Shown: positions 4,489 to 59,727, counted from the first letter of the stretch. The stretch: 64,000 nucleotides of DNA from Kofleriaceae bacterium (GCA_044230415.1 JBGARE010000001.1:433195-497194); one strand, 5' to 3'. Program-made: numbers and translations. The notes: generated by a model from the sequence alone, not told the origin.

Positions 4489-4554
4489 CGCCGCAGTCGA
4501 CGACGATCAGCCATCTCGAACAATCGGGAGCGCTGCCGCAAAACGCGGCAGGGA

Positions 4555-12500: not shown

Positions 12501-12589
12501 GCGGTGCGCACGTTCAGGTCCGCGAGCCGGCCATCCGCGTCGTCCCCCGCGAGCAACGCCTCGCCCTCGGACGCGACCATCTCGAGCAT
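6527..12589 (-). CDS. Giant tetratricopeptide (TPR) repeat protein, about 2000 aa
   Basis: Dozens of 34-aa TPR-like units run end to end, with recurring A..Y...G....A......L..DP.n..al..L patterns (for example [18 protein letters not shown] and [20 protein letters not shown]). The start is ambiguous. The track ORF runs to 13453 through low-complexity sequence. An ATG at 12772 would overlap the divergent ATG at 12771. I chose the next in-frame Met, [10 protein letters not shown]..., at 12589. Confidence 0.8.
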   Translation of the reverse strand: [2020 protein letters not shown]

Positions 12590-12833
12590 TCGCTCGACGA
12601 GGACCTCGGCATCCGCGACTTCGAGGTTGCGCGTGTCCTCCGCGAGATCCGCATCGTCGACAACGGACGCAATAGGCACGACGTCCGTACGCCCTGCTGC
12701 TGGAGCAACCGGGACGCGCGGCAACGGCGGCGGCTTGGTCCCCGGCCGTCGGATCGGTGGCGGATCCGCCATGCGACTGGCGATCGTAGCAGGGCTGACG
12801 TCAAAGGGGCCAGCTCGTGTATCCTTCTCCGCG

Positions 12834-18924: not shown

Positions 18925-18994
18925 TTCTCGATCATACGCTGTCGTACTTCGATAAGCCCGCGACGACCCAAACAGGCGGGCGGACCGCTTCTCT

Positions 18995-25680: not shown

Positions 25681-28600
25681 TCAGCCAAACCGACCGCTCG
25701 GAAAGAACACTTCGGTCGCTCTCTCTGGGGCAACCATCCCCGCCGTGCGCGCGCGCTCGTCACCCGCTGCGATCAGCTGTGCGCCCTCGGTGCCTCCGAG
25801 CTCCTCGCCGAGTCTGCGCTCGAGGCTGAACATGGTCACCGCGATGCCACGCGCGTTCGACTCGGAGATCGCCGCGCGCAACGCCCTGACCCGTGCATCG
25901 CGATCGTCGCCGAGCATCGCGATCGCGGCGCGCAGCGACGTGGCGGCGGTGAGCGCGCCGGGGAAGTCGAGCTTCGCGAGCTTGTCCGCCTGTGCTGACG
26001 CCGCGCGAAGATGCGCGAGCGCCTCGCTCGGCGCGCCGCGATGGCGTGCGGCGATCGCGAGTCCCGCGAGATACGTGCCGTACGCGTGCAGCCATTCGAG
26101 GCGCAGGATCGGGATGCGACCGACGAGCGAGCGCTGCATGCGCCGGCACTCCTCGCCCAGCTCGGACTCGAGCGTCGCGAATGCATTCGTGTAGAGCGCG
26201 ATGCGAATGCGACTCCACAGTCCCCACGCACGTTGGTTGCCGAACGAGTCCTTGCCCGGCAGCCAGGACGCGAGCGCATCGAGGACATCGACGCGCGCCG
26301 TGTCCGCACGATCCGCGATCACGTGGCGCATCGCGAACCGCACGCGAAGCGTGACGTCCTGGAACAGATCGCCTTTGCGCTTCGCGAGCTGGATCTGCGC
26401 GGTCGCCCGCTCGGCCATCTCGTTGTAGCGACCGAGCATCTGGAGCGACGACAGCGCGAAGTGCAGCGCGATGTCCGTCTCCCATCCCGGACCGCGCCCC
26501 GCGCGATACCACTCGTGCTCGAGGCGCGTTGCACTCTCGAGCGCACGCACGAAGTCGTTGTCGAGGACAAACACCTTCGCCGTCTGCGCGAGCTCCGCGT
26601 ACCACGCGGACACGGGCATCGCCGCGGCGTCGGCGGCGCGTCGCGTGGCGGCCATCAAGCGATCCGCGCGATCGTGGCGACCGAGGACCGCAGCGCCGAT
26701 CGTCGCCGAGGCCAGCGCGCGCGCGATCTGCTGTGGCGACCCGTACTCGAGTGCGAGGCGCGCCGCGCGGCCCGAGAAGTACGCACCGAGGAGCGTGTCG
26801 ACCATGCCGAGGCCCGCGCCGATCGACCAGCAGATGTCGGCATGGATGGACCGCGGATCGATCTCGGTGCGCGGCTTCCAATCGAGCGCGCGCCGCATGC
26901 GCAGCTGGTTCCACACGATGCCGGCGATCGTGCGCACGCGCGTCGTCGGTAGCGACATGTCCGCGCGCGCGAGGACGGCCCGTGTGGTCTCGAGTCCGCG
27001 ATCGAGCCGCCCCGCCATCAGGAACCGCTCGGCCGCACGCCGGAGGAGATCGAGCTGCTGCGGAGAATCGGCGGACTCGAGGTTCGCGGCTTCGAGGTAG
27101 CACTCGGCAGCGTCCGCCGTACGGCCGTCGTTCGCGAGTGCATCTGCGAGCGCGACGAGCAGCGGGCCGCGACGCTCGGGCTGCGGCGTGGCCGCGAGCG
27201 CGCGCTGGTACAGCTCGGCGGCGCGGCCGAACGCGAATGCGTCGAGCGCGGCCTTCGCGGCGGCGACAACGTAGTGCGCCGCGCGCTTGAGATCGCCGGC
27301 GGACTCGAACCGCTCGAGCAGCGCCGCCGCGGACGCGCCCATCTCCTCGAGCCCCCGCGCGATCGCGCCGTGCAGCCGACGCTGATCGGCATCGGCCACG
27401 TGCGCGAGGATCGCCTGCCGGATCCGATCGTGAAACGGCTCGATCGCATCCTGTGGTCGCGAACCATGGACACGCACGAGCTGCTCGTCGACGAGAGCCG
27501 TCACGTGGCGTTCCGCGGCATCGACGATTCCCGCCGCAGCGCATGCGACGTGGCGTGGAACCGGTGAGCCCGCGACCGCGACCGCCGCGAGGAGCTCGCG
27601 CGTGGCTGGATCGAGCGCGAGCGTGCGCTCCCAGATCACGTCCTCGAGGCGCGATGCTTTCAACGCCGTCCTGCGATGCCGCACGAGCTCGCGCAGGAAC
27701 AGCGGGTGGCCGCGGCTCTCGACGACGATCTGCGCGGTCTCCACGTCCGGATCCGATGCGACGAGCCGCACGAGCTGCGCGGCCGCGGCGGCGCTCAGTC
27801 CGCTGAGAGCGATCGTCCGCGTGTGCGGTGCAGCGGCGATCCGCTCCGCGATCTGTGTTCCTTCGCGCGGGCGCTTCGTCGCGATGATGCAGATCGGCGC
27901 GCCGCTACCGGCGAGCTCCTCGAGGAGCAACGTGCTGTCCGCGTCGGCCCACTGCACGTCGTCGATCGCGATCACCACGGGGCGGCGCTCGCCGATCCGC
28001 ACGAACAGGTGTCGTAGCGCTGCGAACGCGCGTTCGCGAACATCCGATCCGAAGGCGAGGCCCTCGTCGTCCTCGCGATCGGCGAGCGCGGGCACGGCAC
28101 GCAGCGCGGTGAACACGGCGAGCAAGTCGCTGACCTGGCCCGGCACGACGCGCTCGACGGAGGCCGGTGTACGCGACATCAGATAGCGCGCGAGATCATC
28201 GACCACACCGTCGACGGCGTTGAACGGCACGCGTTCGCGCTCGTGACAGCGGCCGCGCAGCACGACGAGCCGCGGCTGCGCTGCCGACGCTTGCTCGAGA
28301 AAGCGATCGACGAGCACGCTCTTGCCGACACCCGACTCTCCCTCGACGAACACGCACGCGAGCTGTGTCCGGCTCGTGTCGAGGGCGGCAGCGAGCACCG
28401 CGAGCTCGTCTTCGCGGCCCACGAACGGCTGTCGCGGGATCTCGAGCGCGATCTCGTCCGCACCGGCGAGCATCGCGAGGATCTGCTGCTCGGTCGGACG
28501 CTGTCTCGGATCGGCGCTCAAGAGGTTCGTGCACAGCCATTCGAGATCCGCCGGGATCCCGGCGACGAGCGTGCTGGGCGAGGGAGCGGCGAGATGCTGC

Positions 28601-29400
28601 TTGAGCACCAGGAGCTCGTTGCCCGTGACGTCTCCAAACGGCGTGCGTCCGGTGAGCGCTTGGAACAACAGCACGCCGACGGCGTACCAATCGGCCGCGG
28701 GGGTGATCGCATCACCGCGCGCCTGCTCGGGGGCCATATACGTCACGGTGCCGATCACCGCTTCGTCGCGCGCAGCGGTCGCGTGCAGCTCGGCGACGGC
28801 GCCGAAATCGAGCAGCACCGCACGACCGCTCGCTTCGACGAGGATGTTCGATGGTTTCACGTCGCGATGGACGATGCCCGCCGCGTGCAGCGCCGAGAGT
28901 CCGCGCGCGAGACCGAGGAGCGCGACGCGCAGGCGATCGAGCTCGCACCGCGGAGCGGGCGCGCGGTCGGCGGCGTACACCGGTGGGGTCACCACCGTCG
29001 AGTCGGCGGGTCCGTCGAGCTTCGACGTCTCCTCCGATCGAGACTCGACGACGCGGCTCGACGTGGCGACGCTCTGGGGCGAGCTCGAGCGCACCCAATC
29101 GACGAGGTTGTCACCGTGGAGGCGATCCATGGTGAAGAACCACGTGCCCGACGACTCGAACAGCTCGCCGAGCTGCACGAGGTTGGGATGCTTCACGTCG
29201 CGCAACATGCGGAACTCGGACTTGAAGCGCAGCACTGCATCGGGTGAGAGGCCACGCAGTGTCTTGAGCGCGACCTCGACGCCCCGCTCCTTGTCGTACG
29301 CGCGATAGACGACGCCCATTCCGCCGCGACCGAGGACATCGAGGACCTCGAATCGGCCGTCGATCATCGATGGGAGTCCGCTCGGATTCCCCTCATCCAC
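25681..29400 (-). CDS. Ser/Thr protein kinase fused to an AAA/P-loop ATPase and TPR-like repeats (STAND-type signalling kinase)
   Basis: The N-terminal Hanks kinase shows [29 protein letters not shown] and APE. A P-loop ([11 protein letters not shown]) with Walker B ([12 protein letters not shown]) follows, and the C-terminal half is helical and TPR-like. This architecture is typical of myxobacteria. Confidence 0.9.
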
Positions 29401-29593
29401 ACCCCATCATAACGGGTATCGCCTCGGTATGCGTCCGGCGTGGCTGGCAGTGGTGATTCTCGGGGCTTGTGGGACGGGACTTAGCTCGCGACGTGGTCGA
29501 GTCCGGCACCCGCTGACGGTGAACGTTCACCAACGCGCAGTGGAACCATCGTGAGTTAGCGCATGGCACGTGCGTTGCGTCGTTCGCGCTCTC

Positions 29594-35956: not shown

Positions 35957-36068
35957 GCTCTCACTGTAGCGCCGTGTCTCGATGGCACGAGTCGAGTGCG
36001 CCGCTGCCTGTCATCGCGGAGTTAGCGGGCCATCCCGCGTGGCGCGGCGCTTGGAATGCCGAGCTGCT

Positions 36069-38264
36069 ATGCGTGTTCGCCTCGCGGCTGTGATGACGGT
36101 GTCTCTGTTGGCCGGGTGGCTCGTGTCGGTCGCGAGCGCGGAGACGTCGAGCGAGCTCCCGGTCCCCGGCGAGGACGACAAGCTCTACGCGTGCAAGAAG
36201 AGCACGGGCTCGATCGAGGTCACGTTCAAGCCGGAGACCGAGGTCAAAGATCTCGTCACGTGGGTGATGGGCTTCACGTGCAAGAACTTCATCTACGCGC
36301 CGCACCTCGTGGCGCAGGGACGCAAGCTGACGATCGTCGCACCGACGAAGATGACCGCGGGCGAGGCGTATCGGTTGTTCCTCGCGTCGCTGTCGACGCT
36401 CGGCCTCACGGTCGTGCCGCAGGGAAACATCGTGAAGATCGTGGAGTCCAACACCGGCAAGCATCTCCCGGTGCCGCTCTACAAGAACGGCGCGCCCGAC
36501 AACACCGACCAGCTCGTGCGCTACGTGATGCGCCCGCAGTTCATGCAGGCCGAGGCGCTCGCGAAGGCGATCGGCAGCGTGAAGAGCGATCCGGGCGAGA
36601 TCACCGTCGCGGGCTCGCTGCTGCTGATCGTCGACTACGGCAGTCACGTGCGCGACATGTTGTCGATCGCGAAGCTCGTCGACGTGCCGAGTGGCAGTGA
36701 AGGCGTCTACACGATCCCGCTCCAGCACGCGGATGCGACGAAGCTGTTGCCGAAGCTGACGGGCATCCTCGGCATGGATGGCAGTGGTGCGCCCGCGGCC
36801 GGCAAAGCCGCGGCACCGACCGACATGGCGCAGGGCGTCGCCCCGTCGAAGATCCTCGTCGACGATCGGACGAACACGCTCGTGGTCGCGGCGAGCGTGG
36901 CCGCGTACGAACGCGTGAAGGCGCTGGTCGAGCGGCTCGATATTCCGCTCGATATCGAGGGCGGCAGCTCGATCCACGTGTATCCGCTCGGCAGCGCGAT
37001 CGCCGAGGAGGTCGCGAAGACGCTCAACGAAGCGATCCAGAAGACGCAAGCGCCCGCGGGCACGTCGAGTCCCGGGCGTCCGGGTGCGCCGCTGCCGGCA
37101 CCGGCCGCGGGCCTCGGTGAAGGGCTCGACGGTCGCGCGCAGGTCGTCGCCGACAAGCCGACGAACAAGCTGATCGTCGTGTCGAGCGGCCGCGACTTCC
37201 TCGCGATCAAGGAGGTCATCAAGGAGCTCGATCAGCCTCGACGCCAGGTCTACATCGAGGCGTTGATCCTCGAGGTCACGCTCGGAAGCGAGTCCGAGTT
37301 CGGGATCAGCGCGCACGGCGGCAAGACCCTCGGCGGACAGAACGGGACGACGCTCGGGCTCGGCGGCATCCAGCTCGGCAATGGCGTCACTTCTCTCGAT
37401 CCGACCTCGCTCGCGAGTGCGACGGGGTTGATCGGCGGGGTCATCGGAAAGGCACTCCCCGGATCCGAGGATCTGTTCGGTCAGAGCATTCCGTCGTTCG
37501 GGATCCTGCTGCAGGCGATCGCGAATCGTTCGAACACCAATGTTCTTTCGGCCCCCAGTATCATCGCGCTGGACAACGAGGAGGCGAAGTACAAGGTCGG
37601 CGTCAACATTCCCTACTCGAAGGGCGTCATTCCGACGACGACGCTGACCCAGAACGCGCCGATCTCGACGAACGTCGATCGCAAGGATCTCGTGCTCGAG
37701 CTCAAGATCAAGCCGCACATCTCGACGGGCGACCAGGTGCTCCTCGAGATCTCGCACGAAGCGAACGACTACGGCGAGGATCTCGCGCTCGGTCCGAGCT
37801 GGGCGACGCGCGGCTTCGAGACGCGCGCCGTCGTGAAGGATCAACAGACGTTCGTGCTCGGCGGGTTGATGCAGGAGAAGGACATCCAGCAAGCACGGCA
37901 AATCCCGCTCCTCGGTGACATCCCGATCCTCGGCAACCTGTTCAAGTACTCGAAGAAGATCAAGAAGAAGACCAACCTGATCATCATGCTCACGCCGTAC
38001 ATCATCAAAGACGACCTCGATCTCGAGGCGATCCGCGAGCGAAAGATGCGCGAGCACACCGAGTACACGCAGTCGAAGCGTACGTTCGAACAGCTGCGGT
38101 TCCAGCCGCGCATCGACTATCGCCGCAAGCGCGGCCTCGTCGAGGACATCAATCGCACCGTGATGCAGGTCGAGACAGACCTCGCGACGCTCGAAGCGCT
38201 GAAGCGTCCCGAGGCGATGAAGTCAGGGCCCGTGCAAACCGCGCCGGCGAGTCAGCCCGAGTAG
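36069..38264 (+). CDS. gspD: Secretin, GspD family (type II secretion / T2SS-like outer-membrane channel)
   Basis: The signal peptide is MRVRLAAVMTVSLLAGWLVSVASA. N0/N1-type domains are present (KDLVTWVMGFTCKNFIYAP..., ILVDDRTNTLVVAAS..., LIVVSSGRDFLAIKEVIKELD). The C-terminal secretin core reads VLGGLMQEKD...IPLLGDIPILGNLFKYSKKIKKKTNLIIMLTPYIIKD. Confidence 0.9.
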   Translation: MRVRLAAVMTVSLLAGWLVSVASAETSSELPVPGEDDKLYACKKSTGSIEVTFKPETEVKDLVTWVMGFTCKNFIYAPHLVAQGRKLTIVAPTKMTAGEAYRLFLASLSTLGLTVVPQGNIVKIVESNTGKHLPVPLYKNGAPDNTDQLVRYVMRPQFMQAEALAKAIGSVKSDPGEITVAGSLLLIVDYGSHVRDMLSIAKLVDVPSGSEGVYTIPLQHADATKLLPKLTGILGMDGSGAPAAGKAAAPTDMAQGVAPSKILVDDRTNTLVVAASVAAYERVKALVERLDIPLDIEGGSSIHVYPLGSAIAEEVAKTLNEAIQKTQAPAGTSSPGRPGAPLPAPAAGLGEGLDGRAQVVADKPTNKLIVVSSGRDFLAIKEVIKELDQPRRQVYIEALILEVTLGSESEFGISAHGGKTLGGQNGTTLGLGGIQLGNGVTSLDPTSLASATGLIGGVIGKALPGSEDLFGQSIPSFGILLQAIANRSNTNVLSAPSIIALDNEEAKYKVGVNIPYSKGVIPTTTLTQNAPISTNVDRKDLVLELKIKPHISTGDQVLLEISHEANDYGEDLALGPSWATRGFETRAVVKDQQTFVLGGLMQEKDIQQARQIPLLGDIPILGNLFKYSKKIKKKTNLIIMLTPYIIKDDLDLEAIRERKMREHTEYTQSKRTFEQLRFQPRIDYRRKRGLVEDINRTVMQVETDLATLEALKRPEAMKSGPVQTAPASQPE

Positions 38265-48805: not shown

Positions 48806-49603
48806 CTAACGGCAGGACGTGATGGAGAGCTGCATGCCACCGCCTGCTTGGCTGTCCTCGCGTGCTTTCGTGTACAGCGTTCCGGTCGTGGTCGTCGGGA
48901 CGAGGAGGAGCGAGAGCTGCATTCCGTCGATCCAGTTGCGCGCCTCGGTGATCTGACTCGCCACGAGGTCGATCGGAACGAACAGCCGGTCTTGCTGTGC
49001 TTCGATGTCGATGACGGTGACGTCAGCGAGCGACACCATGCTGCGATCGGTGGCGCCGTCCGCCCCTTGTGCCATCCACATCGTTCCCGTGCCGGGACCG
49101 CCGAGCTGCTTGCGCATGCACCACGCCGCGCCGATGTTTCCGGTGTTCTGTCCCTCGTTCCAATCGTTGTTCGCGGCGAAGATGGAGAATTGCATCGCGG
49201 AGCTCGGACAAGGCGCCGCACAAGCGTCCGGCTTGAGAGGGATCGTCAGCGTGCCGCTCTCGAAGCCGCCGCCGGGCGCGAACGCCTCGACCATCTCGGA
49301 CAGGAGCGCGAACCGCACGAGGATCCGCGAGCGCGTCGACGCGGACGCCGGCTGCCCGAGGTTGACGTTGATGTAGCCGCCGAAGCGATTGCCGGGATCA
49401 CACGCGCCGGTGTTGTCGCGGATGAGCATCGTGTCCGCGACAGCGACGACCGATGCCGTGCGCCGCGTGCATGGAGGTGGTGCGTCGATGTCCGGCGGTG
49501 CATCGACCTCGGGCGGAGCATCGGGGGCAACGCGGTCGCCGAGCCCGTAGACGAGATCGCATCCGCTGATCGCGAAGAGTACCAGCGGGAGTGCGGATCT
49601 CAT
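48806..49603 (-). CDS. Lipoprotein, hypothetical (265 aa)
   Basis: The refined start MRSALPLVLFAISGCDLVYG has the lipobox AISGC. A PPEVDAPPDIDAPPP linker follows, then a Cys-containing domain. The track ORF extends to 50029 through Arg/Leu-rich artefact sequence. Confidence 0.55.
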   Translation of the reverse strand: MRSALPLVLFAISGCDLVYGLGDRVAPDAPPEVDAPPDIDAPPPCTRRTASVVAVADTMLIRDNTGACDPGNRFGGYINVNLGQPASASTRSRILVRFALLSEMVEAFAPGGGFESGTLTIPLKPDACAAPCPSSAMQFSIFAANNDWNEGQNTGNIGAAWCMRKQLGGPGTGTMWMAQGADGATDRSMVSLADVTVIDIEAQQDRLFVPIDLVASQITEARNWIDGMQLSLLLVPTTTTGTLYTKAREDSQAGGGMQLSITSCR

Positions 49604-49629
49604 CTCGATCACTCTAGTACCCTGGCGGC

Positions 49630-51874
49630 CATGGGTGGAGCGAAGAAGGGCAAGACTGCGAAGAAGGCGCCGGGCAAGACAGCTAGTAAGACAGCGAAGC
49701 CAGCCAACGCGAAAGCGAAGCCCGCGAAGACTGCCAAGGCCCCGCCTCCAACGCCGCTGCCGAGCAATGTTCCGAAGGCGCTCGCGGCGAAGGTGGAGAA
49801 GGCCGCGAAGCACATCGATGGGAAGTTCTGTTACGGGCTCCCGCACTACGACGTGTCGTCGAAGATGAAGTTCGATCTCGTCGAGCTGGGCGACATGGAG
49901 CTGTTCGAGGAGAACGAGGTCGACGCCGACGAGTGGACCGGGTGGATCCCGTTCGCGACGCTCGGCAGCGAAGCGCAGTTCCTCGCGATCCACACCGAAG
50001 CGCCGTATCGCGTCGGCATGTGGGAGCACGAGAACGGCAAGATCTACGACGTGTGGGCATCGCTCGATGACTTCACGGGGCGCGTGCTCGCGAGCAAGAA
50101 GGACAAGACGCCGTACGAGCTGCTCGACAAGGTGATGGACAAGGCGAGCAAGCTCGTCGATGACGACAAGGATGCCGAAGCGCTCGCGCTGCTCGAGCCG
50201 GCGATCGCGAAGCTACCGACGGTGTCGACGGACAAGCACGACGACCAGCTGTCGCGATTGAACAACCTGTGGGGCCTGTCGCTGAAGGGCGTGAAGCGCT
50301 ACGAGGAAGCGCTCGCGGCGTTCGAGCGCGCGGCGAAGGCGGGCGAGGACTACGCGGTCCTCAACATCTGCGACATCTTGCTCGAGACGATGAAGGAACC
50401 GAAGCGCGCTCTCGAACGCGCGGAGGCGATGCGCGAGGGGTACTTGACGCCGTACGAGCGCACGTGGTCGGCGATCTACATCGCGATGGCGTCGCTCGAT
50501 CTCGGGGATCCCGCGCGAGCGGAGAAGGAGCTGCGCGACATCGTCGAGCGCTACGCGATCAAGGACGCGAAGATGGTCGCGACAGCGCGCGAGAAGATCG
50601 AGGAGTACGTCGAGGAAGGCCGTGCGGGCAAAGCGGCGGCGGAGACGTACCTCGCGTGGCTGAAGCCGAAGTCGTACGACGACATCTCGCCCGCCGATGC
50701 GAAGGCAAATCGCGCGTGGTGGACGTCTCTCGACAAGACGATGCAGGAGAAGCTCCTCGAGGAAGTGAAGATCGAGGATGTCGAACCCGATGCCGCCACC
50801 GACGCGCACATCGCGCAGTGCCTCGATACCGAGGAGTGCGACGTGGACAATCGCGACAAGACTTCGATCGACGATGTCACGCCGTTTCTGCGGCTGACGA
50901 ACGCGCGCCGGATCAGCTTCTACGGCGATCCCGATTCGGTGGAGCCGTTTCGCGCGCTGTCGAAGCTCGAGCGACTCACGATCAACAACGTCGTGATCAA
51001 AGACTTCAAGTGGCCGAGTCGCGCGCAGCGCGATCTGTGGAACGCCGCCGCGAAGGCCGACAAGGCTGGGATGGAGAAGGCGCTCGCCGCGGGTGCGGAC
51101 ATCGACATGCACAGCCACGATTGGGGCAAGACGGCGTTCCAGCTGATTCCGTTTGGCGACGAGCATCGTCCGCTCGCGCTATGGCTCGTCGAGCAGGGCG
51201 CCGATCCGTTCGCGGGCAACCACGGCGATGGCGACAGCTATCAGGTCACGTGGTGGCCCGAGGACATGAAGAAGCGCGCGTTCGCGGCGATGAAGAAGTT
51301 CGGTCATCCGCCGATCGAGGACTCGCCGTGGCGAAAGTTCGATGTCGGTCGCGGGCAGCGCGCCGCGAGCTTCGATTCGCCCGACTTCCGGATCGAGGAC
51401 AAGGACTTCGACGATGGCGACTCGCTCGTCGACGAATGGCCGAAGGACGCGACGCTCCAGATGGAGCCGCCGAAGAAGGACGACAAGATCTACGACGTGA
51501 TGCGCGTGAAGTACGACGAGGCGGTCGTGTCCGAGAAGGTGGCCGAGGTGCTGCGAACGGATCCCAACATCGAGCTACTGCCGGTGACGCTGATCCGCCA
51601 CGACAAGAAGCCGGTGCCGGGCACGTGGTACTTCGTGAACCCGCTCGCGAAGGACTGCTTGATCCCCGAGAAGTGCAGCTTCCAGTGGAATCACATCAAC
51701 CCGGACAGCGCGTCGAACATCTGCAGCTACGCGATCGATGCGAGCAAGGTCGGCGATGCGCAGATGTTCCGTCCGACGATCCTGAACTCGCGGCCGATGA
51801 TCGTGACGAAGGCGATGGCCGACAAGCTCGCCGCGTTCGGCGATTGCGTGCGGATCACGACGCTGAAGCGCTAG
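49630..51874 (+). CDS. Multi-domain protein with a Lys/Ala-rich histone-H1-like N-terminal tail, a SUKH-1 (SMI1/KNR4-like) domain, a helical/TPR-like region, LRR-like and ankyrin repeats, and a C-terminal immunity-protein-like domain
   Basis: The start MGGAKKGKTAKKAPGKTASKTAKPANAKAKPAKTAKA is low-complexity and basic. The SUKH-1-like block is WTGWIPFATLGSEAQFLAIHTEAPYRVGMWEHENGKIYDVW. Ankyrin repeats appear as AAAKADKAGMEKALAAGADIDMHSHDWGKTAFQLIP...LVEQGADPF. The C-terminal 130 aa (WYFVNPLAKDCLIPEKCSFQWNH...) looks like an immunity-type domain (DUF1629-like), but that is a tentative recollection. Confidence 0.7.
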
Positions 51875-52859
51875 TCTCGAAGTCGATCACGCGGACCGCG
51901 CCCGTCGGCTCCGTCCACAGGACGAGCTTGGCTTGGCCGTGCACCGTGATGCCGACCTGGAGGACATCGCCCTTCTGCACGCCCGCAGCGCGCCACGGCA
52001 GCGTCACGCTGTGAGCGCCCGCGCGAACGAGCACCAGGCGCTCGCCCGCGAACAGCACCTCGGCGGCGACCATGCGCGGCGCGACGACCGGGCGCTCGAT
52101 GCGCGGGACCCACAGTCGCGTGACGAGGTTCGCGAGCTGCGCCGGTGCCGACGGCGGCAGCGCGGCATCGATGCGCTCGCGCAGCGACGTGCAGTCCTCG
52201 CCAAAGCGCTGGAGGAACGCCGCACCCGCGGCGCGCGTGATGGGATTCGCCTCGCGATCGTCGAGGATCTCGAGCGCGACCTCGACGCAGCGGCGAGGCC
52301 CCACGCCGATCTCGAGCAGCGCGAGCAACGCGAACGGCGAGATCGGCGAGGTCTCGAGCGCTTCGAGGTAGCGCGCCTGCAAGGCGGGCACGTGGATCGC
52401 GAGCGCGGCGAGCGGACGATCGAAGCGCGCGATCCATCCGAGGATCTCGTTCGTGTGATCGGCGATGATCCGGTGAAGGCGATCGCGCACCGGCGCCTCG
52501 AGGGTGTCGGCGGAGGCGACGTACTCGGCGATCAGCTCCGCGATGCGCTCGGACAGCGGCGAGCCGCGGCGAATGAAGTCGAACAGGAACGGCACGATCG
52601 TGACTGCGACCGGATACAGCACGCGATGCCGGAGTGCGTGGCGCTCGAGCACCGCGAACGCTTCTTCGATCTCTTCGGGGTGGTTCGTGTAGAGCTGCGC
52701 GTGGCGGAGGACCGAGAGCGCGCTCGGCACGTTCGCGTGCGCTCCGATGCTTCCATCCGAGGGACCGAACGCTCCGCGCAAGACGCCCCAGGGGAGCTCC
52801 GCGACGGAGTGCTCGATGTTCGCGACGTCGACGCGGCCGGTGGCACCGAACCTACTCAT
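51855..52859 (-). CDS. Hypothetical helical protein
   Basis: A 330-aa ORF with good codon bias and no recognised motif. It is convergent with the previous gene and overlaps it by 20 bp. The start was chosen at MSRFGATG. Confidence 0.45.
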   Translation of the reverse strand: MSRFGATGRVDVANIEHSVAELPWGVLRGAFGPSDGSIGAHANVPSALSVLRHAQLYTNHPEEIEEAFAVLERHALRHRVLYPVAVTIVPFLFDFIRRGSPLSERIAELIAEYVASADTLEAPVRDRLHRIIADHTNEILGWIARFDRPLAALAIHVPALQARYLEALETSPISPFALLALLEIGVGPRRCVEVALEILDDREANPITRAAGAAFLQRFGEDCTSLRERIDAALPPSAPAQLANLVTRLWVPRIERPVVAPRMVAAEVLFAGERLVLVRAGAHSVTLPWRAAGVQKGDVLQVGITVHGQAKLVLWTEPTGAVRVIDFETSASAS

Positions 52860-52980
52860 CACCCGGGAATGTAGAGCAAGCCCCCGGCCAATCAACCGGC
52901 AATGTGTGAACGGCCATTTGGATCACTCCGCAGGGGCCTACAGGCCACAGCAAGGTGGCAGGTCGGCTAGTCTTGCCGCC

Positions 52981-54057
52981 ATGAAGCGCTGGGCAACGAT
53001 CGCAGTGGTCGGGATCTTCCTCGGATGCGGCGGAAAGTCTCCACCGCCGATGGCGCCTGCACCTGCTCCCGCTCCCGCCCCGGTCGCCACCTGCGCCCCG
53101 ACCGTGGCGCCGCCGGCCGAGCTCGACGAAGCGAAGCTGTCCGAGCGCAGCAAAGCGCTCTACGACGCGATGGATGCGAACGACGTCACGCGGTTCTTGA
53201 AGCTCGCGGGGCCGGCGCTCGTGTTGTTCGAGGACGGACGCAGCTTCTCGTCGTCGATGCTCGTGCAGCAGATGTCGAGCCGCGTCGAGCGCAACCTGCC
53301 GCGGCGGACTCGCACGTGGAAAGAAGAGCGCGCGTACCTCGGACCGAACGTCGCCGTGTTCGTCGGGCTCGCCGTCGAGGTGCTGCCCACCGAAGGCGGG
53401 AAAACGACGGAGTTCGAGGGCTGGAACACCGCGGTGTGGGTCAACGATGGCACCGAGTGGAAGGCGTCACATCTGCAGTGGCAGCCCGGTGGCATCGAGG
53501 CCGAGCGCTCGATGTGGAACGAAGCCTTTCGCAAGCAGATCAGCTTCAAGACCACGCCGAATCAGCTGCTCGTCGACACGATCAAAGGCAAGAAGACCGG
53601 CGCCGCGCTGGACGTGATGATGGGGCAGGGCCGCAACGCCGTGTTCCTCGCGACGAAGGGCTGGAAGGTCACCGGCGTCGACATCTCCGACGAGGGAATC
53701 CGTCAGGCGAAGGAGGCCGCGCAGAAGAAGGGCGTGCAGCTCACCGCCGTCCAGGCCGACATCGAGAAGTTCGACTTCGGGACGAACAAGTGGGACCTCG
53801 TCACGATGATCTACGCCGGCAGCGACGCGTCGACGGTCGAGAAGATCAAAGCGAGCCTCAAGAAGAACGGCCTGTTCGTCGTCGAGTACTTCCACGCCGA
53901 AGGCACCGCGGGCTCCGGCATCGGTGGCTTCGCGACGGGCGAGCTCGCCGCGAAGCTCGAGGGCTGGAAGGTGCTCAAAGATGAAGTCGTCGAGGACGTC
54001 TCCGATTGGGGCCTGCGCAAGATGAAGCTCGTGCGCTTCGTCGCGCAGAAGCCCTGA
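52981..54057 (+). CDS. Lipoprotein with an NTF2/SnoaL-like N-terminal domain and a C-terminal class I SAM-dependent methyltransferase (TehB/TPMT-like)
   Basis: The refined start MKRWATIAVVGIFLGCGG has the lipobox FLGC. The linker APAPAPAP follows. The methyltransferase domain shows motif I ALDVMMGQGRNAVFLATKGWKVTGVDIS and motif II LVTMIYAG. Confidence 0.75.
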   Translation: MKRWATIAVVGIFLGCGGKSPPPMAPAPAPAPAPVATCAPTVAPPAELDEAKLSERSKALYDAMDANDVTRFLKLAGPALVLFEDGRSFSSSMLVQQMSSRVERNLPRRTRTWKEERAYLGPNVAVFVGLAVEVLPTEGGKTTEFEGWNTAVWVNDGTEWKASHLQWQPGGIEAERSMWNEAFRKQISFKTTPNQLLVDTIKGKKTGAALDVMMGQGRNAVFLATKGWKVTGVDISDEGIRQAKEAAQKKGVQLTAVQADIEKFDFGTNKWDLVTMIYAGSDASTVEKIKASLKKNGLFVVEYFHAEGTAGSGIGGFATGELAAKLEGWKVLKDEVVEDVSDWGLRKMKLVRFVAQKP

Positions 54058-54067
54058 ATCGCCCGGG

Positions 54068-54781
54068 CTAGGTCGACGACCAGCCCATCGCGAACTGATC
54101 CGCGTGCGTCGCGCACTGATGCACGTACGCGAGGCCCGAGTCGCCGAAGTCGACGATCTCGCCGCCTTGCAGCTGCAGCACGAAGCGCATCGGCTGATCG
54201 CACTTCTCGCAGCTCGGTGAGCTCGCGCTCTGGATCCAATCGGCCCATCCGCCGAGCTTGGTCCTGCCATACGGTCGCTGCTCGCTGTTCTGGACCGCGG
54301 ACATCTCCTTCGCATTCAGCTTGGCCGCGGCGTTCTCGCGCAGGTCCTGCCAGCCGGGCAGCTCCGGTGCCGCGTCGAAGCCGACGATCCGCTTCGCCAG
54401 CGAGAGGTGCGCGGGTGCATCACTCGCGCGTGCGGCGCCCTTCTCGTCGATCAACCGGACGAGCTTGCCGTCACCGTCGGGCGTCGACGTGTAGCCCTCG
54501 TCGCACGACGAGCGACCGCAGTGGAAGATCTGCGCGACCTTGCCCTTCGGCACGACGATGCCGCCGGCGGGTGCGTCGTCGGCGCGGAGCTGCAGCAAGA
54601 GCTGCATCGGCTTCTTGCAGCTCTTGCACTTCGGCCACTTCGATTTCGGTGCGAGCCACGCGACGCCGCCGATCTGCGACGCGATCGTCTTGCTGTCGCC
54701 GGTCTCGGTGCGGGGAACATGGCGCGTGCGAGCGAGGCCCGCGAGCTTTGTTTCGAGTCGTGCAGTGCGATCGGCGTTCAT
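54068..54781 (-). CDS. DUF1963/YwqG-like family protein
   Basis: The signature repeats twice: GGVAWLAPKSKWPKCKSCKKPMQLLLQL and GGWADWIQSASSPSCEKCDQPMRFVLQL (GG-x-W-x6-P-x-C-x2-C-x2-PM-x-F/L-Q-L). The start codon directly abuts the stop of the upstream ankyrin gene, indicating an operon. Confidence 0.75.
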   Translation of the reverse strand: MNADRTARLETKLAGLARTRHVPRTETGDSKTIASQIGGVAWLAPKSKWPKCKSCKKPMQLLLQLRADDAPAGGIVVPKGKVAQIFHCGRSSCDEGYTSTPDGDGKLVRLIDEKGAARASDAPAHLSLAKRIVGFDAAPELPGWQDLRENAAAKLNAKEMSAVQNSEQRPYGRTKLGGWADWIQSASSPSCEKCDQPMRFVLQLQGGEIVDFGDSGLAYVHQCATHADQFAMGWSST

Positions 54782-57700
54782 CTAGACCTCCAGGAGCTCG
54801 AGCAGATCGTGGTCGTAGCGGGTGTGATCGGCGGCGGTCTTGCCTTCGTTGTCGCGCAGGCCACGGTTCGCCCCGGCGGCGAGCAAGAGCTCGATCGCCT
54901 TCTTCTCGCGGAACCGCGCGGCGTGGATCAGCGCGGTGGATCCGTCCTCGTCCTGAAGATCGAGGTTCGCGCCTTCTTCGATCAGCAGCTCGACGCAGGC
55001 CGGGTTGTCGACGGCGCACATCAGCGCGGTGCGTCCGGCCGAGTCCTTCGCGTCGACGTGAGCGCCGCGCTTCAGCGCGAGCACGATGTGCGCCTTGTTG
55101 CCCGTCCACGCGGCGTTGATGGCGCACTCCGCGACGGACGCGCCGCGATCGAGGAACAGCTCGAACACCTTCTTCGACTTCGCGGCGGCTGCGTTCTGCA
55201 CCGGTGTCGATCCGGTGGAGTCCTTCTCTTCGAGCTCGCACACGTCGAGGAACTTCTCGACGAGCGCCATCTTGCCGGAGCTCGCACTCTCGGCGAGGCA
55301 GCCGGCGACGGCCGCCTTTCGCGCGAGGAAGAAGTCGACGATGTCCTCGTGACCGCGGCGTGCCGCGAAGTGGATCGCGGTCGCCTTCTTCTCCGTGGTC
55401 GCGTGGATGTCCGCGCCGTTGTCGACGAGCCACGTCACGAGCGACAGTGCATCGTCGCTGTCTTCGACGAGAGCGGCGACCATGAGCGGCGTCTTGCCGT
55501 CCTCGCTCGCTGCGTTGACGCTCGCACCGAGCTCGACGAGCAGCTTCGCGACGTCCTTGTCCGGCGTCTCGAGTGCGCGGCACAACGCGGTCTTGCCGTC
55601 GTCGCTCCGGGCATCGAGGTTGTCGCCGTTCGCGAGGCACAGCGCGGCGATCCGCTTTCGCTCCGCAGCCTTCTTCGGCAGCGCGTCGCGTTCGATCATC
55701 GCGGCGATGCACCCGTCGAGCTTCGCGCCCGCGGCGACGAGCTTGTCGAGGAGCGCGAACTGCTGCTCTCGGGCTGCGATCTGCGCGACGGTGCGATAGC
55801 TACGCGCGTTCGGATCGGCGCCCGCGGCGAGCAAGCGATCGACAATGGTCCAGTAGCTGTAGCCTGCGGCGCGCAGGATCGGCGGCTCGGCATCGGCGGA
55901 CTCCGCGAGGCTCGGATTCGCGCCTTGTGCGAGGGCGAGGTCGAGCGTGGCGAACTGATCGTCGCTGCCGGTCGCCGCGCTGGCGAGCGCCGCTTGCGGA
56001 TCGAGCAGCGTGATCGTGCGGCCCTCGCCGACCCAGGTCTCGATTCGCTCGCGTATCGAGTAGCTCGTGCCGTCGACGGGCGCGCCTTTCGCGAGCAGCT
56101 CCTCGACGAGGCCGGGAAGATCCTCGGCGTAGTCCACCGCGCGTGCCACGAGCGATGCGCCGGGCTTTCCGGTCACCTTCGTTCCGCGATCGAGCAGCAA
56201 GCGCACGAGCGCGGCGTTGCGTGACGACAACGCCGATTCGACGATCAGCGACTCGCCGTGGAGCTCGTTGGGGTCGAAGCCGGCATCGAGGAGCGCGGTC
56301 ACGATCTCGATGTCCTCGCGCCACACCGCGCGCTGGAGCGTGCCGTTCGCGCGCGGCTTCGCGCCGGCGGCGATCAGCGCCTGGACCGCGGCGAGCGTGC
56401 CCGATTCCGCGGCGCGGTACAGCGGCGTGTAGCCGTACTCGTTCAGCACGCGATCGACCTCCGCACCCGCGGCGACGAGCGCCGCGATCGACGCCGGCTT
56501 GCCCGCAGAGGCGGCGAACTCGAGCGGCTCTTTGTAACTGGGCAACGGCTTCGTGAACCCGTGCACCGGCGCGAGACGAGCGATCGTCTCGGTGTCCTCG
56601 TCCTCGATCGCGCGCTGCAGTGCGACCGCCGGATCGACATCCGCGGAGCGCTTCCGCATCAGCGCGACGACGTCGCCGCGGCGTGCTTCCTCGGCGAGCG
56701 CGAACGCGGTGAATCCCGTGCGATCGGCGAGGAACGGCGCTGCACCGCGATCGAGCAACAGCTCGACGATCGCGAGGTGGCCCATGTCCGCGGCTTCCAT
56801 CAGCGCGGTCCAGCCATCGTTGTCGGCGGCGTCGATGTCAGCACCCTTGTCGAGCAACGCGTGGACGATCGCGAGGCGGCCGTACTCCGCTGCTTCGTGC
56901 AGCGCGCGCCGTCTGTCGTCGTTCGCGACGTTTACATTGACCGGGCGCTCCAGCATCGCGAGGACCTCGGCATCCGTGCCGCGTCCCGCGAGCGCGATCA
57001 GCTCGACGAGCTGCAGCGTCGCGCCGCGTGCCTCGAGGAGCGCGGCGACGTCGCGGTGCTTGTTGTTGGTCGCGATGCGATGCGGGACGTTGCCATCCTT
57101 GTCGGCGAGGTTCGGATCCGCGCCGTGATCGAGCAGCACGCGCACGTTGTCGAGGTGCCCTCGATCCGATGCGCGATGCAGCGGCATCCAGCCGTACTCA
57201 CCGGGTGCGTTCGCATCGGGTGCGATCTCGAGCGCTCGCGTCATGCGCTCCGCGTTGTTGCTGTTCTGCGCGACGCCCATGACGATGCCGCTCGTCGTCG
57301 GATCGCCGAAGCCACGGTCCGCGAGTAGCTCGACGACCTCGATGTGACCGCCCGCGCCCGCACGGCGGATGGCGGTGTAGTCGTCGACCTCGTAGCCTTC
57401 GCGGGGGCCGGGCTCGGTCGCGCCGCGGTCGAGGAGCAGCTCTACCACCTCGCGGTGACCGCCGCGCGCCGCTTTGCGCAGCGCCGTGTCCTGATCGTAG
57501 CTGTCGTCGACCCAGTTCACGTCGGCGCCGCGGTCGAGGAGCAGCTCGACGATCTCGCGGTTGCCTTTCTCGGCAGCGGTGATCAGCGGCGGCTTGCGCG
57601 ACTTCGCGTTCATCGCGCCGCGATCGAGGAACAAGCGCACGAGCTCCACGCTCTCGCGCTCGATCGCGCGCTCGAGCGGCGAGTCGCTGTACGAGCGCGA

Positions 57701-58792
57701 ATCGACGGACAGCCGCGCGCCCGCCGCGAGCAAGCGTTTGACTACCTCGACGTGGCCGCGATTCGCCGCGGCGCCGAGCGCAGTCGTGTCGATGATGTTG
57801 CCGAGGTGAATGTCCGCACCGCGCTCGATCAACAGATCGACGACATCCGTCCAGCCATGCTCGGCGGCTTCGATCAGCGCCGTGTCGCGATTGCCTTCGT
57901 GACGCGCGTCGATATTGGCGCCGCGATCGAGCAGGAACGTCGCGATCTCGAGGAGGGCCGCGGGCCTGTCGTAGTTGTTCGCGACAAACGCCATCGCCGC
58001 GTCGAGATCTGCGCCGGCATCCGCGAGGAGCCGCACGATGTCGAGGTGGCCTTCGCGCGCTGCATGCGCGATCGCGGTGCGCCCTTCTCTGTCCGCGAGA
58101 TCCAGCGGGCTCGCCGACGCGGTCTTCGACTTCTTCGGCTTCGCTTTGGACGTCGACTTCGCGGCGGGCTTTGCCTTCGCGGGAACATCGAGCTGCTCGA
58201 CCAACCACGCGACGAGAGCGCGATGATTCCCCGCCGCGGCCAGCATCAGCGCGGACGTGCCTTGCTCGTCGACCACCGCCAGATCGTCGCCGGCCTTCAG
58301 CGCGCGCTTCGCCATCTCGAGATCGCCGGCCGCGACGGCACCGAGCAGCCAGCCGCGGACCGCTGCCTTCTTCTTCACGAGCCAGTCGACGATGTCGCCG
58401 CGCTTCGCCCGCGCCGCGTTGCCGAGGCCGCTCCAGCCGCTCTCGCGATCGTCGATCGATGCACCGTTCTCGACGAGCAGCTCGAGGAGCTCGATCGAGA
58501 CCGTCGCGCACGCGCTCGCGAACACTCCCTCGCGAGCGGCATCGCCCGGACGCTGCCCGAGGATCCACCGCGCGACCTTCTCGGCCTTGTCACCCAGCGC
58601 GCTGCCGAGGAGGTACTCGTCGACCGCTTCGCCGGCCGCGACGATCTCCTGAACGATCGCGAGGTCATCCCGCGCGATCGCTCGATACATCGCGCTCGAG
58701 CGGTCCGACTCGGTGACCGTGGCGATCAGCTTCCGGACCGTGGCGACATCGCCGCCATCGGCCGCGGCTACCCATTCCTCCTGGCTCATCAT
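54782..58792 (-). CDS. Giant ankyrin-repeat protein (about 1335 aa, at least 30 ankyrin repeats)
   Basis: The ankyrin consensus recurs continuously, with G-TPLH-AA--GH--iV-LLL--GAdvn units such as GRTAIAHAAREGHLDIVRLLADAGADLDAA and GWTALMEAADMGHLAIVELLLDRGAAP. The start was chosen at MMSQEEWVAAADGG at 58792. The track ORF runs to 59122 through non-repeat, Arg-rich sequence. Confidence 0.85.
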   Translation of the reverse strand: MMSQEEWVAAADGGDVATVRKLIATVTESDRSSAMYRAIARDDLAIVQEIVAAGEAVDEYLLGSALGDKAEKVARWILGQRPGDAAREGVFASACATVSIELLELLVENGASIDDRESGWSGLGNAARAKRGDIVDWLVKKKAAVRGWLLGAVAAGDLEMAKRALKAGDDLAVVDEQGTSALMLAAAGNHRALVAWLVEQLDVPAKAKPAAKSTSKAKPKKSKTASASPLDLADREGRTAIAHAAREGHLDIVRLLADAGADLDAAMAFVANNYDRPAALLEIATFLLDRGANIDARHEGNRDTALIEAAEHGWTDVVDLLIERGADIHLGNIIDTTALGAAANRGHVEVVKRLLAAGARLSVDSRSYSDSPLERAIERESVELVRLFLDRGAMNAKSRKPPLITAAEKGNREIVELLLDRGADVNWVDDSYDQDTALRKAARGGHREVVELLLDRGATEPGPREGYEVDDYTAIRRAGAGGHIEVVELLADRGFGDPTTSGIVMGVAQNSNNAERMTRALEIAPDANAPGEYGWMPLHRASDRGHLDNVRVLLDHGADPNLADKDGNVPHRIATNNKHRDVAALLEARGATLQLVELIALAGRGTDAEVLAMLERPVNVNVANDDRRRALHEAAEYGRLAIVHALLDKGADIDAADNDGWTALMEAADMGHLAIVELLLDRGAAPFLADRTGFTAFALAEEARRGDVVALMRKRSADVDPAVALQRAIEDEDTETIARLAPVHGFTKPLPSYKEPLEFAASAGKPASIAALVAAGAEVDRVLNEYGYTPLYRAAESGTLAAVQALIAAGAKPRANGTLQRAVWREDIEIVTALLDAGFDPNELHGESLIVESALSSRNAALVRLLLDRGTKVTGKPGASLVARAVDYAEDLPGLVEELLAKGAPVDGTSYSIRERIETWVGEGRTITLLDPQAALASAATGSDDQFATLDLALAQGANPSLAESADAEPPILRAAGYSYWTIVDRLLAAGADPNARSYRTVAQIAAREQQFALLDKLVAAGAKLDGCIAAMIERDALPKKAAERKRIAALCLANGDNLDARSDDGKTALCRALETPDKDVAKLLVELGASVNAASEDGKTPLMVAALVEDSDDALSLVTWLVDNGADIHATTEKKATAIHFAARRGHEDIVDFFLARKAAVAGCLAESASSGKMALVEKFLDVCELEEKDSTGSTPVQNAAAAKSKKVFELFLDRGASVAECAINAAWTGNKAHIVLALKRGAHVDAKDSAGRTALMCAVDNPACVELLIEEGANLDLQDEDGSTALIHAARFREKKAIELLLAAGANRGLRDNEGKTAADHTRYDHDLLELLEV

Positions 58793-58828
58793 CTCCCTTT
58801 CGGACGTAGCTCCCCGTACGATAGCCGC

Positions 58829-59143
58829 ATGAGCGAGGCGGCAAAGAAGTACAGGTCGGCCGTGGTGGAGCGAGTTCAGAGCGGTGATGGCCATGCACGC
58901 GCGGCGGATCGACGCGCCGCGTTCGCGAACGTCGACGTCCCCGCGGGAGCACGCGCGCTGATCGACAAGGTGGCGAAGACCGCGTGGAAGGTGACCGACG
59001 AGGACGTCGCCGCCGCGAAGGCCGCGGGAGTCACCGAGGACCAGGTGTTCGAGCTCGCGGTGTGCGCCGCGATCGGACAGGCTTCGCGCCAGTTCGATTC
59101 GGCCATGGCCGCACTCGACCAAGCTGCAAAGGAGACCCCGTGA
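58829..59143 (+). CDS. Small CMD (carboxymuconolactone decarboxylase/AhpD-like) helical-domain protein, 104 aa
   Basis: MSEAAKKYRS...ALIDKVAKTAWKVTDEDVAAAKAAGVTEDQVFELAVCAAIGQASRQFDSAMAAL resembles the C-terminal helical half of CMD-family proteins. Its stop overlaps the next gene's GTG start as GTGA. The upstream part of track ORF 57344..59143 is antisense to the ankyrin gene and was discarded. Confidence 0.5.
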   Translation: MSEAAKKYRSAVVERVQSGDGHARAADRRAAFANVDVPAGARALIDKVAKTAWKVTDEDVAAAKAAGVTEDQVFELAVCAAIGQASRQFDSAMAALDQAAKETP

Positions 59144-59727
59144 GGCTCTCGGTCCTCGATGGCAAGCACCACACGCTCGGCAAGCGCGCGCTGTTCGTGG
59201 TGATCCGCGCGATGTCGCGCATGCCGGTGCCCGACGTCGTCAAGACGCTGACGTATCGCCCCGACTTCTTCGGCGCGCCGATGAACGAGGTGTTCCAGGA
59301 AGTGATGCGGGGTCCGTCGGAGTGGTCGATCGGCGAGCGCGAGCTGATGGCCGCCTACGTCTCGAAGACGAACGAGTGCGAGTTTTGAACTCGCGCTCAC
59401 GGCGCGGTCGCGTCGAAGGTGCTCGGTAACACGGCGGTAGATGCAGCGCTCGCGGATCTCGCGGACGCGAAGATCAGCGACAAGCTACGCGCGACCCTCG
59501 CGATGCTGCGAAAGGTCACGCGCGATCACGCGTCGATCACCGCGGACGACATGCGCTCTCTGCTGGCGAGCGGTGTCACGCGCGCGCAGATCGAGGACGC
59601 GCTGCTCGTCGGCTGGTGCTTCAACGTGATCACGCGGCTCGCAGACACGTTCGAGTTCCACGTCGGCCCGCAGGCGGCGTTCGACTCGTCGGCGAACATG
59701 CTGCTCAAGCGCGGCTACAAGATCTAA
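59140..59727 (+). CDS. CMD/AhpD-family 'peroxidase-related enzyme' (TIGR01926-like) with an in-frame TGA at 59386..59388, precisely at the second Cys of the catalytic CxxC-xxx-H motif; candidate selenoprotein (CxxU), otherwise a pseudogene
   Basis: Track ORFs 58984..59388 and 59419..59727 are in the same frame and separated only by the TGA. Read through, the protein is ...ERELMAAYVSKTNECEF[TGA]TRAHGAVASKVLGNTAVDAALADLADAKISDKLRATLAML...VTRAQIEDALLVGWCFNVITRLADTFEFHVGPQAAF. This aligns with the family consensus ...LTASVEN-C-x-Y-C-xxx-H..., placing Cys at +0, TGA at +3 and His at +7. Both halves have CMD-like helices. A 5-bp GC hairpin, CGCGC-UCACG-GCGCG, begins 3 nt after the TGA. Confidence 0.5.

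Follow-up and report, generated by a model that had tools for sequence, protein, structure and literature searches.

We have found that a 9-kb region (49.6-58.8 kb) of a 64,000-nucleotide stretch of a Kofleriaceae bacterium (GCA_044230415.1, JBGARE010000001.1:433195-497194; the whole stretch is hereafter called the window) holds, by comparison with related loci, two unrelated units set in a conserved Kofleriaceae backbone and no immunity island. The first unit is gene A, which encodes a multi-domain protein with immunity-type modules, and the second is the gene pair E-D, which encodes a giant ankyrin-repeat protein and a YwqG-like protein. A preliminary description of this DNA had placed three such proteins within 9 kb and proposed that they form an orphan-immunity arsenal. 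The three proteins are present at essentially the positions given there (A was placed at 49630 with 748 residues, as against 49631 and 747 residues here), and most of what was observed was right; the interpretation that united them was wrong. At about an even chance, the best joint reading is that A is an orphan polyvalent immunity-type protein and that E-D forms a split ankyrin-YwqG binding complex.

Gene calling based on G+C at third codon positions and gene calls on matching metagenome contigs agreed on five genes between 49.6 and 58.8 kb rather than three, with genes B and C lying between A and D-E. Gene A (49631-51874, plus strand; open reading frame (ORF) with exact start) encodes a cytoplasmic protein of 747 amino acids (aa) composed of a tail followed by SUKH, tetratricopeptide-repeat (TPR), leucine-rich-repeat (LRR)-like, ankyrin and Imm11 modules, and was also called in four metagenome contigs (ENA/Logan) with an identical protein. 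Gene B (51855-52859, minus strand; 334 aa) is a conserved hypothetical gene convergent with A, and gene C (52981-54057, plus strand; 358 aa) encodes a lipoprotein with Pfam matches to Methyltransf_25 (1.7e-15; S-adenosylmethionine methyltransferase) and DUF4440 (9.2e-8). Gene D (54068-54781, minus strand; 237 aa) encodes a DUF1963/YwqG protein of the TYPP superfamily, with two repeats that each carry GG, CxxC plus Cys/His, and Q. Gene E (54782-58792, minus strand; 1336 aa) encodes about 40 ankyrin-type repeats end to end and directly abuts D. Orientation alternates across the region: A(+), B(-), C(+), D(-), E(-).

Searches of related genome loci (designated L005, L016 and so on) with the window proteins by tblastn separated the two units. 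L005 carries A without E-D, and L016 (GCA_964617845.1) carries E-D and, in place of A, a deletion scar. In a set of three relatives with backbone proteins mostly 83-94% identical to those of the window, A and E-D each show one presence/absence difference. Since two conserved genes stand between A and E-D, on different strands, and the two units occur independently in close relatives, the island reading fails. A single orphan-immunity arsenal, in which A, D and E would all neutralise foreign toxins as members of one polyimmunity island, would be in keeping with the immunity-type domains of A, the listing of ankyrin repeats as Imm-ank by Zhang et al. 2012, the variable presence of both units among close relatives, and the lack of a toxin gene in the cluster, which is typical of polyimmunity loci. 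Such loci, however, are described in the accessible text of Zhang et al. 2012 (PMC3482391) as tandem, co-oriented and uninterrupted immunity genes, often near a recombinase. Here the strands are mixed, the interrupting genes B and C do not belong to immunity families, and no recombinase gene lies among the window genes near A and E-D. YwqG, which the preliminary description had counted among recurrent immunity families, is not named in the accessible text of Zhang et al. 2012, and YwqG/DUF1963 is not presented as an immunity family there or in Burroughs & Aravind 2014; among the 17 papers retrieved that mention YwqG, none concerns toxin immunity by title and abstract. E-D, moreover, is found again as a pair of constant length in unrelated neighbourhoods that hold no other immunity genes. 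We regard the single arsenal as highly unlikely.

The domain composition of A was established from its family and a structural model. Thirty-eight homologs were retrieved at 44-84% identity, most of them full length, and 31 full-length proteins among them were scanned individually against Pfam (gathering scores of 25.4 bits for SUKH-1, 22.1 bits for Imm11 and, for gene D below, 23 bits for DUF1963). SUKH-1 was matched in 18 of the 31, Ank in 10 (Ank_2/Ank_4), TPR families in up to 9 and Imm11 in 5; on A itself the TPR hits are sub-threshold. The AlphaFold2 model built on the family alignment has a mean predicted local distance difference test score (pLDDT) of 87.4. Residues 1-45 (49631-49765) form a Lys/Ala/Pro-rich tail, basic and histone-H1-like, in which residues 1-40, the sole disordered segment, have pLDDT <50; the tail is limited to the closest A clade and is variable in length there. 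A SUKH-fold domain follows at residues 46-155 (49766-50095; alpha+beta, 49-150 in the model), then TPR-like helical repeats at residues 160-345 (50108-50665; 165-341 in the model). Three LRR-like beta-alpha units are predicted at residues 400-462 (50828-51016) from the secondary structure of the model and an LxxLxxLxIxN-like pattern; no LRR family matched A or its homologs in the Pfam scans at the thresholds used. About three ankyrin repeats occupy residues 463-560 (51017-51310; ankyrin-type helices at 464-556 in the model), and the A-family profile searched against PDB sequences matches ankyrin/DARPin chains there (E 1e-34). The Imm11 (DUF1629) domain covers residues 561-747 (51311-51871; beta-rich, 567-747 in the model). 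The tail, SUKH and ankyrin assignments of the preliminary description stand by composition, fold and profile, respectively, while its LRR has the model and no profile behind it, and its layout had missed the roughly 180 residues of TPR.

The two ends of the protein bear most directly on immunity. A possesses the SUKH alpha+beta fold, and P0218, a distant full-length homolog, passes SUKH thresholds outright (SMI1_KNR4 29.7 bits, SUKH_5 34.4 bits). At the C-terminus, where an immunity-protein family had been tentatively suggested, the domain is Imm11/DUF1629, with membership established transitively through relatives: the gathering score is exceeded by the ortholog P0026 at 25.6 bits and by P0208 and P0294 at about 42 bits, and Imm11 was found in 41 of 43 sequences scanned (42 proteins retrieved with the A C-terminus, plus the query). 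This domain has the fold of the Imm11 prototype MXAN_0049, and the closest structural matches of A are bona fide immunity proteins. Neither an enzymatic domain nor a signal peptide was found in A. PADLOC returned nothing for A, B or D, and repeat-driven hits only for E.

Gene A is ancestral at its site, vertically inherited and dispensable. Its orthologs are syntenic across Kofleriaceae/Haliangiales. In L005-L008 it occupies the same chromosomal position, with a radical-SAM (KamA-like) gene upstream of it, and it adjoins gene C in the truncated contig L009, with an identity of 78% in L005 and 49-52% in L006-L009. Named relatives of A come from metagenome-assembled genomes of Kofleriaceae, Haliangiales and Polyangiales, all of them Myxococcota. 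Its dispensability follows from L016, where the neighbours are all kept and A is missing; the 96-bp spacer left in its place is a deletion scar, in which ~35 nt from the beginning of A and ~40 nt from its end can still be aligned. The last ~40 nt of A were presumably retained because they encode the C-terminus of B, the 3' ends of the two genes overlapping by 20 nt in the window (51855-51874).

The architecture itself is older than the lineage and fixed across Myxococcota and Bacteroidota. Residues 60-714 of A align with WP_169675562.1 of Flavivirga algicola (731 aa; 26% identity, E 3e-56), a Bacteroidota protein that is named "imm11 family protein" by NCBI. It has the same domain order as A and is likewise encoded by a stand-alone gene without toxin neighbours, but it comes from another phylum and lacks the Lys/Ala tail. 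An end-to-end alignment was also obtained between A and a metagenomic protein of 805 aa, which begins with a WGR domain and scores above the thresholds for SUKH, Ank and Imm11. An N-terminal WGR domain was seen in two of the long Imm11-ending proteins sampled; one of these is P0218, in which it stands ahead of the SUKH domain and which aligned with A end to end. Shorter paralogs of the N-terminal half of A also occur in Kofleriaceae genomes (L010 and L015, ~330-aa proteins; L013, L014), some with SUKH and a helical domain only and others with transmembrane helices and SUKH, sharing a common VAMWEHE motif.

No toxin-type domain was found in any neighbour gene of A examined (in the window, L005-L009, L025 and around the Flavivirga gene). 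The neighbours are a lipoprotein, hypotheticals and a radical-SAM enzyme, and backbone genes recur beside A in L005-L009. We considered hyp265 or hyp177 as a hidden toxin beside A and rejected both, hyp265 being a fast-evolving lipoprotein and hyp177 a small membrane protein, neither of which matches any family. The divergent start codons of hyp265 and A are only 27 nt apart (49603-49631), with the same spacing in L005, so that the A promoter must sit inside hyp265. This lipoprotein evolves unusually fast, at 54% identity compared with 83-91% for most neighbours.

A would be, as we read it, a stand-alone cytoplasmic protein of five fixed modules (SUKH, TPR, LRR-like, ankyrin and Imm11), all of them binding modules and none an enzyme, that neutralises incoming toxin domains by stoichiometric binding. 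Its Imm11 and ankyrin modules would most plausibly bind nucleases of the AHH/HNH/SHH type and its SUKH module further nuclease or deaminase-type toxins, and the repeat modules may add binding surface. The accessible text of Zhang et al. 2012 (PMC3482391) counts SUKH, Imm-ank, LRR and Imm11 among its immunity domains and gives Tox-AHH as a partner of Imm11 as well as of Imm-ank. It defines a polyimmunity protein by at least two distinct immunity domains, usually without a toxin gene in the operon. A fits this definition, with SUKH, ankyrin and Imm11 in one polypeptide and no adjacent toxin gene. In Myxococcus xanthus, experiments have established Imm11 proteins as immunity proteins against AHH nucleases, and AHH-Imm11 pairs dominate kin discrimination there (PMC12077181). 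The immunity idea of the preliminary description thus survives for A, which has at least three immunity-listed domain types and no nearby toxin, and not for D-E. The same description would have taken conserved synteny with a housekeeping function across distant relatives as refuting its idea, and what was seen for A is the synteny part alone, with syntenic orthologs down to ~50% identity.

A also departs from its models. Like the polyimmunity proteins of Zhang et al. 2012, it is cytoplasmic, joins several unrelated immunity-type domains and has no adjacent toxin gene; unlike them, it is colinear across two phyla and syntenic rather than shuffled or strain-variable, and it adds a long TPR module not listed there. 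Typical relatives of MXAN_0049 (Myxococcus xanthus, PDB 6A4C, with an AHH nuclease as partner) are stand-alone proteins of ~190 aa encoded directly downstream of their toxin, whereas in A the Imm11 domain is the C-terminus of a much longer protein. Several results count against a toxin-binding role. SUKH-1 (PF09346) scores 18.9 bits on A, below the gathering score despite the fold, and 17-21 bits in ten close homologs (best E among all 31, 2.8e-4), and Imm11 (PF07791) gave no Pfam hit on A itself at E<0.1 and stays below its gathering score. All domains of A are conserved to about an equal degree and the architecture is fixed across phyla; both would be unusual in polyimmunity proteins, which are shuffled, and the domains could instead form a single machine that serves some other, endogenous role. 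The imm11 genes of M. xanthus reportedly always lie downstream of a toxin gene (PMC12077181), unlike A, for which no toxin partner was identified within the visible 64 kb of genome.

Some of these results would be expected if A were instead a scaffold or sensor exapted for an endogenous function, such as an adaptor associated with the nucleoid or with nucleic acids, and its SUKH and Imm11 ends bound cellular partners. Eukaryotic SUKH proteins recruited to housekeeping (Smi1/Knr4, FBXO3) provide a precedent. The five-domain order is kept end to end from Myxococcota to Bacteroidota (E 3e-56, 2e-72) with roughly equal conservation of all domains, A is syntenic at ~50% identity, and it never has a toxin neighbour, Flavivirga included. 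The WGR domain of two relatives, a predicted nucleic-acid binder, occupies the N-terminal position at which A carries its basic Lys/Ala tail. An endogenous role sits poorly, however, with the clean deletion of A in L016 while its neighbours were kept, with its rarity (38 close homologs, as against >216 for the neighbouring gene B), with its faster evolution than most backbone genes (78% vs 83-91% identity in L005), and with the bona fide immunity proteins that are its closest structural matches. We take such a scaffold seriously as a rival but consider it somewhat unlikely, and favour the reading of A as an orphan immunity-type protein.

The second unit consists of two proteins of quite different kinds. 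D matches Pfam DUF1963 at 27.6 bits, above the gathering score, and its family profile matches B. subtilis YwqG (1PV5) with an E of 4.5e-10 over positions 16-226 and, weakly, the RPC10 zinc ribbon. Its repeat signature (GG, CxxC, Q and further Cys/His) is invariant among 18 homologs, including both GG motifs, G39, C52, C55, Q64 and C88 in repeat 1, and G177, G178, C191, C194, Q203 and C223 in repeat 2. The duplicated signature that had been noted for D is thereby borne out, as is the giant ankyrin protein immediately upstream in the same unit. E matches Ank_2 at 426.9 bits (1.2e-130) in 13 stretches, and Pfam together with inspection of the sequence finds ankyrin-type repeats throughout. No toxin, enzymatic or other domain was found in E besides these repeats and one Lys-rich low-complexity loop (residues 203-227; 58112-58186, minus strand). 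NCBIfam matches for E are repeat-driven and all far below cut-offs. In a toxin-immunity pair with E as toxin and D as its immunity protein, the larger protein would be expected to carry a toxin or enzymatic domain, and none was seen.

Orthologs of E in the first three neighbourhoods described below are 1331-1337 aa long, colinear and almost gapless at 47-72% identity. A Lys-rich insert stands at the same position in five of five aligned orthologs with differing sequences, including (KT)n. As a docking site for D this loop is kept only as a weak possibility, being absent from the shorter ankyrin partner in L022; in the L022 clade, D itself has a Lys-rich insert. Segments rich in Lys, Ala, Pro or Thr recur in unrelated proteins of the lineage, namely the A N-terminus (49631-49765), the E loop, the C-terminus of C in L005 (10333-10440) and L016, and the inter-repeat linker of the D homologs P0051-P0057, and probably reflect a lineage-wide habit rather than a shared function.

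There is good evidence in the sequence that E and D are translationally coupled. The Shine-Dalgarno motif predicted for D, GGAGG (54787-54791, minus strand), lies within the last codons of E (CTG GAG GTC TAG, then ATG), which encode Leu-Glu-Val, and is 5-6 nt ahead of the D start. The junction CTGGAGGT(C/G) plus stop codon recurs 0-1 nt before the D start (five orthologous loci besides the window, three further lineages), and the GGAGG is conserved down to 47% protein identity. The C-terminal Leu-Glu-Val of E (54782-54793) is conserved, apparently through a constraint on the nucleotide sequence, since CTGGAGGTC also serves as the ribosome-binding site of the gene that follows. We also considered an E-D fusion by stop-codon read-through; in the window and L016 a single TAG separates the two genes, which share a frame, but in L017-L021 the frame is shifted by a 1-nt spacer, so that translational coupling via the embedded GGAGG is the conserved feature.

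E-D behaves as a two-gene module that is found in different genomic settings. D homologs at 40-100% identity have a co-oriented ankyrin gene upstream in every readable neighbourhood, in at least five contexts. The first is the site shared by the window and L016; in the second (L017-L019) the pair stands beside an amino-acid permease and a short-chain dehydrogenase, and in the third (L020, L021) near a glycosidase and a methyltransferase. The fourth, a contig of GCA_041447075.1, has a 1311-aa ankyrin gene and a 257-aa D homolog, and the fifth (L022) has ankyrin ORFs of 558 and 141 aa and a 244-aa D homolog. No recognisable toxin gene was seen in any E-D neighbourhood examined. The interval 54058-58816, which is almost wholly D and E, is present in the window and L016 and absent in L005, L008 and L009. 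Homology to L005 breaks off where C ends and is regained ~12 nt ahead of the small backbone gene hyp104, and no E or D remnants were found in L005, L008 or L009, where C runs straight to hyp104. With the pair in the window and L016 and no remnant in the other three, E-D most probably entered this site by insertion in the lineage that includes the window and L016. A mobile-element origin was rejected, as there were no viral-contig relatives, no flanking direct repeats seen, no compositional deviation and no recombinase among the genes examined; G+C across the 64-kb window is 64-72%. An alteration of the C-terminal tail of C by the insertion was likewise rejected, since tail length varies regardless of E-D presence.

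We interpret the translationally coupled 1336-aa ankyrin solenoid and 237-aa zinc-ribbon-bearing YwqG/TYPP protein as a split, greatly expanded form of ankyrin-YwqG fusion proteins. D may bind E as a dedicated partner or chaperone-like factor, as its eukaryotic homologs Tsr4 and PDCD2 do for the ribosomal protein uS5, and the two would act as one protein-binding complex. Ankyrin-YwqG fusions have been reported by Burroughs & Aravind 2014, who proposed a protein-interaction, chaperone-like role for bacterial TYPP proteins. D shares the two-repeat signature (GG, Q and paired CxxC) of YwqG/DUF1963 (1PV5), and the order of ankyrin then YwqG matches that of the fusions, but here the parts are separate coupled genes and the ankyrin part has grown to ~40 repeats of conserved total length. 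Tsr4 and PDCD2, dedicated chaperones of uS5 (PMC6648895, PMC7736825), belong to the same superfamily as D and provide an earlier case of a TYPP protein with a single dedicated client, bound co-translationally, although their link to ribosome biogenesis is not applicable to D, whose client would be an ankyrin solenoid. Two findings weaken the case for a dedicated pair. The size of the ankyrin partner ranges from ~700 to 1337 aa. Among 80 distant D loci (26-36% identity), 47 of which had at least 1 kb upstream, ankyrin sequence stands directly upstream in 5 of the 47; one of these (L026) is the window's own contig, and without it the proportion is 4 of 46, most YwqG loci having no ankyrin neighbour. 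All four are fusion ORFs, comprising three distinct single ORFs with N-terminal ankyrin repeats and C-terminal YwqG. Ankyrin was downstream of D in none of 52 loci.

The preliminary description had raised the possibility that the large ankyrin protein is itself a delivered effector. E would then be a eukaryote-like ankyrin protein delivered to prey or host cells, and D would assist its export as chaperone or adaptor. Secretion as effectors is common among large bacterial ankyrin proteins (the NCBIfam matches of E to Legionella Ank effectors reflect repeats only), E-D is coupled in the manner of effector-chaperone pairs, and the window contains genes for a secretin and for a protein with an extracellular contractile injection system (eCIS) core domain. 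Yet the neighbourhoods examined show neither a secretion signal nor genes of a secretion system or of a known adaptor family next to E-D, all matches to effector families are far below cut-offs, and the ankyrin-YwqG fusions would need the "chaperone" to be exported along with its cargo. The data here neither support nor exclude delivery, which we hold to be very doubtful. Nothing in the neighbourhoods examined links E-D to a toxin, and neither an immunity nor an effector role for the pair has direct support; the split binding complex is the reading that we prefer.

A further joint interpretation goes beyond our preferred one on both units. The SUKH-TPR-LRR-ANK-Imm11 proteins could be an integrated, possibly nucleoid-tethered guard against nuclease toxins rather than a string of independent domains, and the giant-ankyrin/YwqG pair could be a dedicated bacterial client-chaperone system, the prokaryotic counterpart of uS5-Tsr4/PDCD2. 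We judge this combination unlikely.

The genes around the two units are mostly ordinary. The backbone order is radical-SAM, hyp177, the hyp265 lipoprotein, [A], B, C, [E-D], three small genes, TPR, AraC and metallo-beta-lactamase fold, and the flanking genes include a DsbA-like protein, a phosphodiesterase, an esterase, a radical-SAM enzyme, an AraC regulator and a metallo-beta-lactamase-fold protein. Gene B has its homologs (52-96% identity) mostly in Kofleriaceae and is kept in L016 despite the deletion of A; no Pfam, NCBIfam, PADLOC or meaningful PDB match was found for it, nor a Pfam hit in 17 members of its family. Gene C is syntenic in L005, L006, L008, L009 and L016. The small gene hyp104 (58829-59143, plus strand) is divergent from E, 36 nt from its start codon; homology to L005 resumes here at 78% nucleotide identity, and a 104-aa gene was called at the matching L016 position. 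It is the first of three small co-oriented genes (58829-59727, plus strand; 104, 82 and 102 aa) that are conserved across relatives, the third of which has a weak peroxidase-related match to TIGR01926 (AhpD/CMD-like, E 1.3e-6). A promoter and terminator scan yielded nothing that exceeded shuffled expectation.

Other features of the window lie farther away. A 1349-aa protein (457-4506, minus strand) has an N-terminal eCIS core domain (PF13699, formerly DUF4157; E 5.6e-12) and no family match over the rest. This domain is typical of cargo and toxins of extracellular contractile injection systems, and the protein is the sole toxin-like candidate in the window, 45 kb from the A/E-D region. Close upstream of it, with one small ORF between, is a 2308-aa TPR protein (6527-13453, minus strand). 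Two STAND-type signalling proteins, one with an nSTAND1 NTPase and HEAT repeats (18956-22924, plus strand; 1322 aa) and one with a Ser/Thr kinase and AAA_16 (25681-29406, minus strand; 1241 aa), are encoded on either side of a phosphoenolpyruvate carboxylase gene. A GspD-type secretin (35970-38264, plus strand; Secretin 2.6e-42) has no other secretion-system genes identified beside it.

Both A and E-D are of known kinds, the family of A being already labelled imm11 by NCBI. Immunity-type domains that lie close together do not make an island, and in this region it was synteny that separated two unrelated units. Since the five-domain Imm11/SUKH architecture is conserved between Myxococcota and Bacteroidota, some "polyimmunity" proteins may be stable, integrated machines. 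No assigned function was found for the bacterial YwqG/TYPP family in the literature searched. The coupled ankyrin-YwqG pair, together with the ankyrin-YwqG fusions, points to a concrete candidate client of the bacterial relatives of Tsr4 and PDCD2 and, if the client-chaperone reading is true, would provide the first function and client to be defined for bacterial TYPP proteins.

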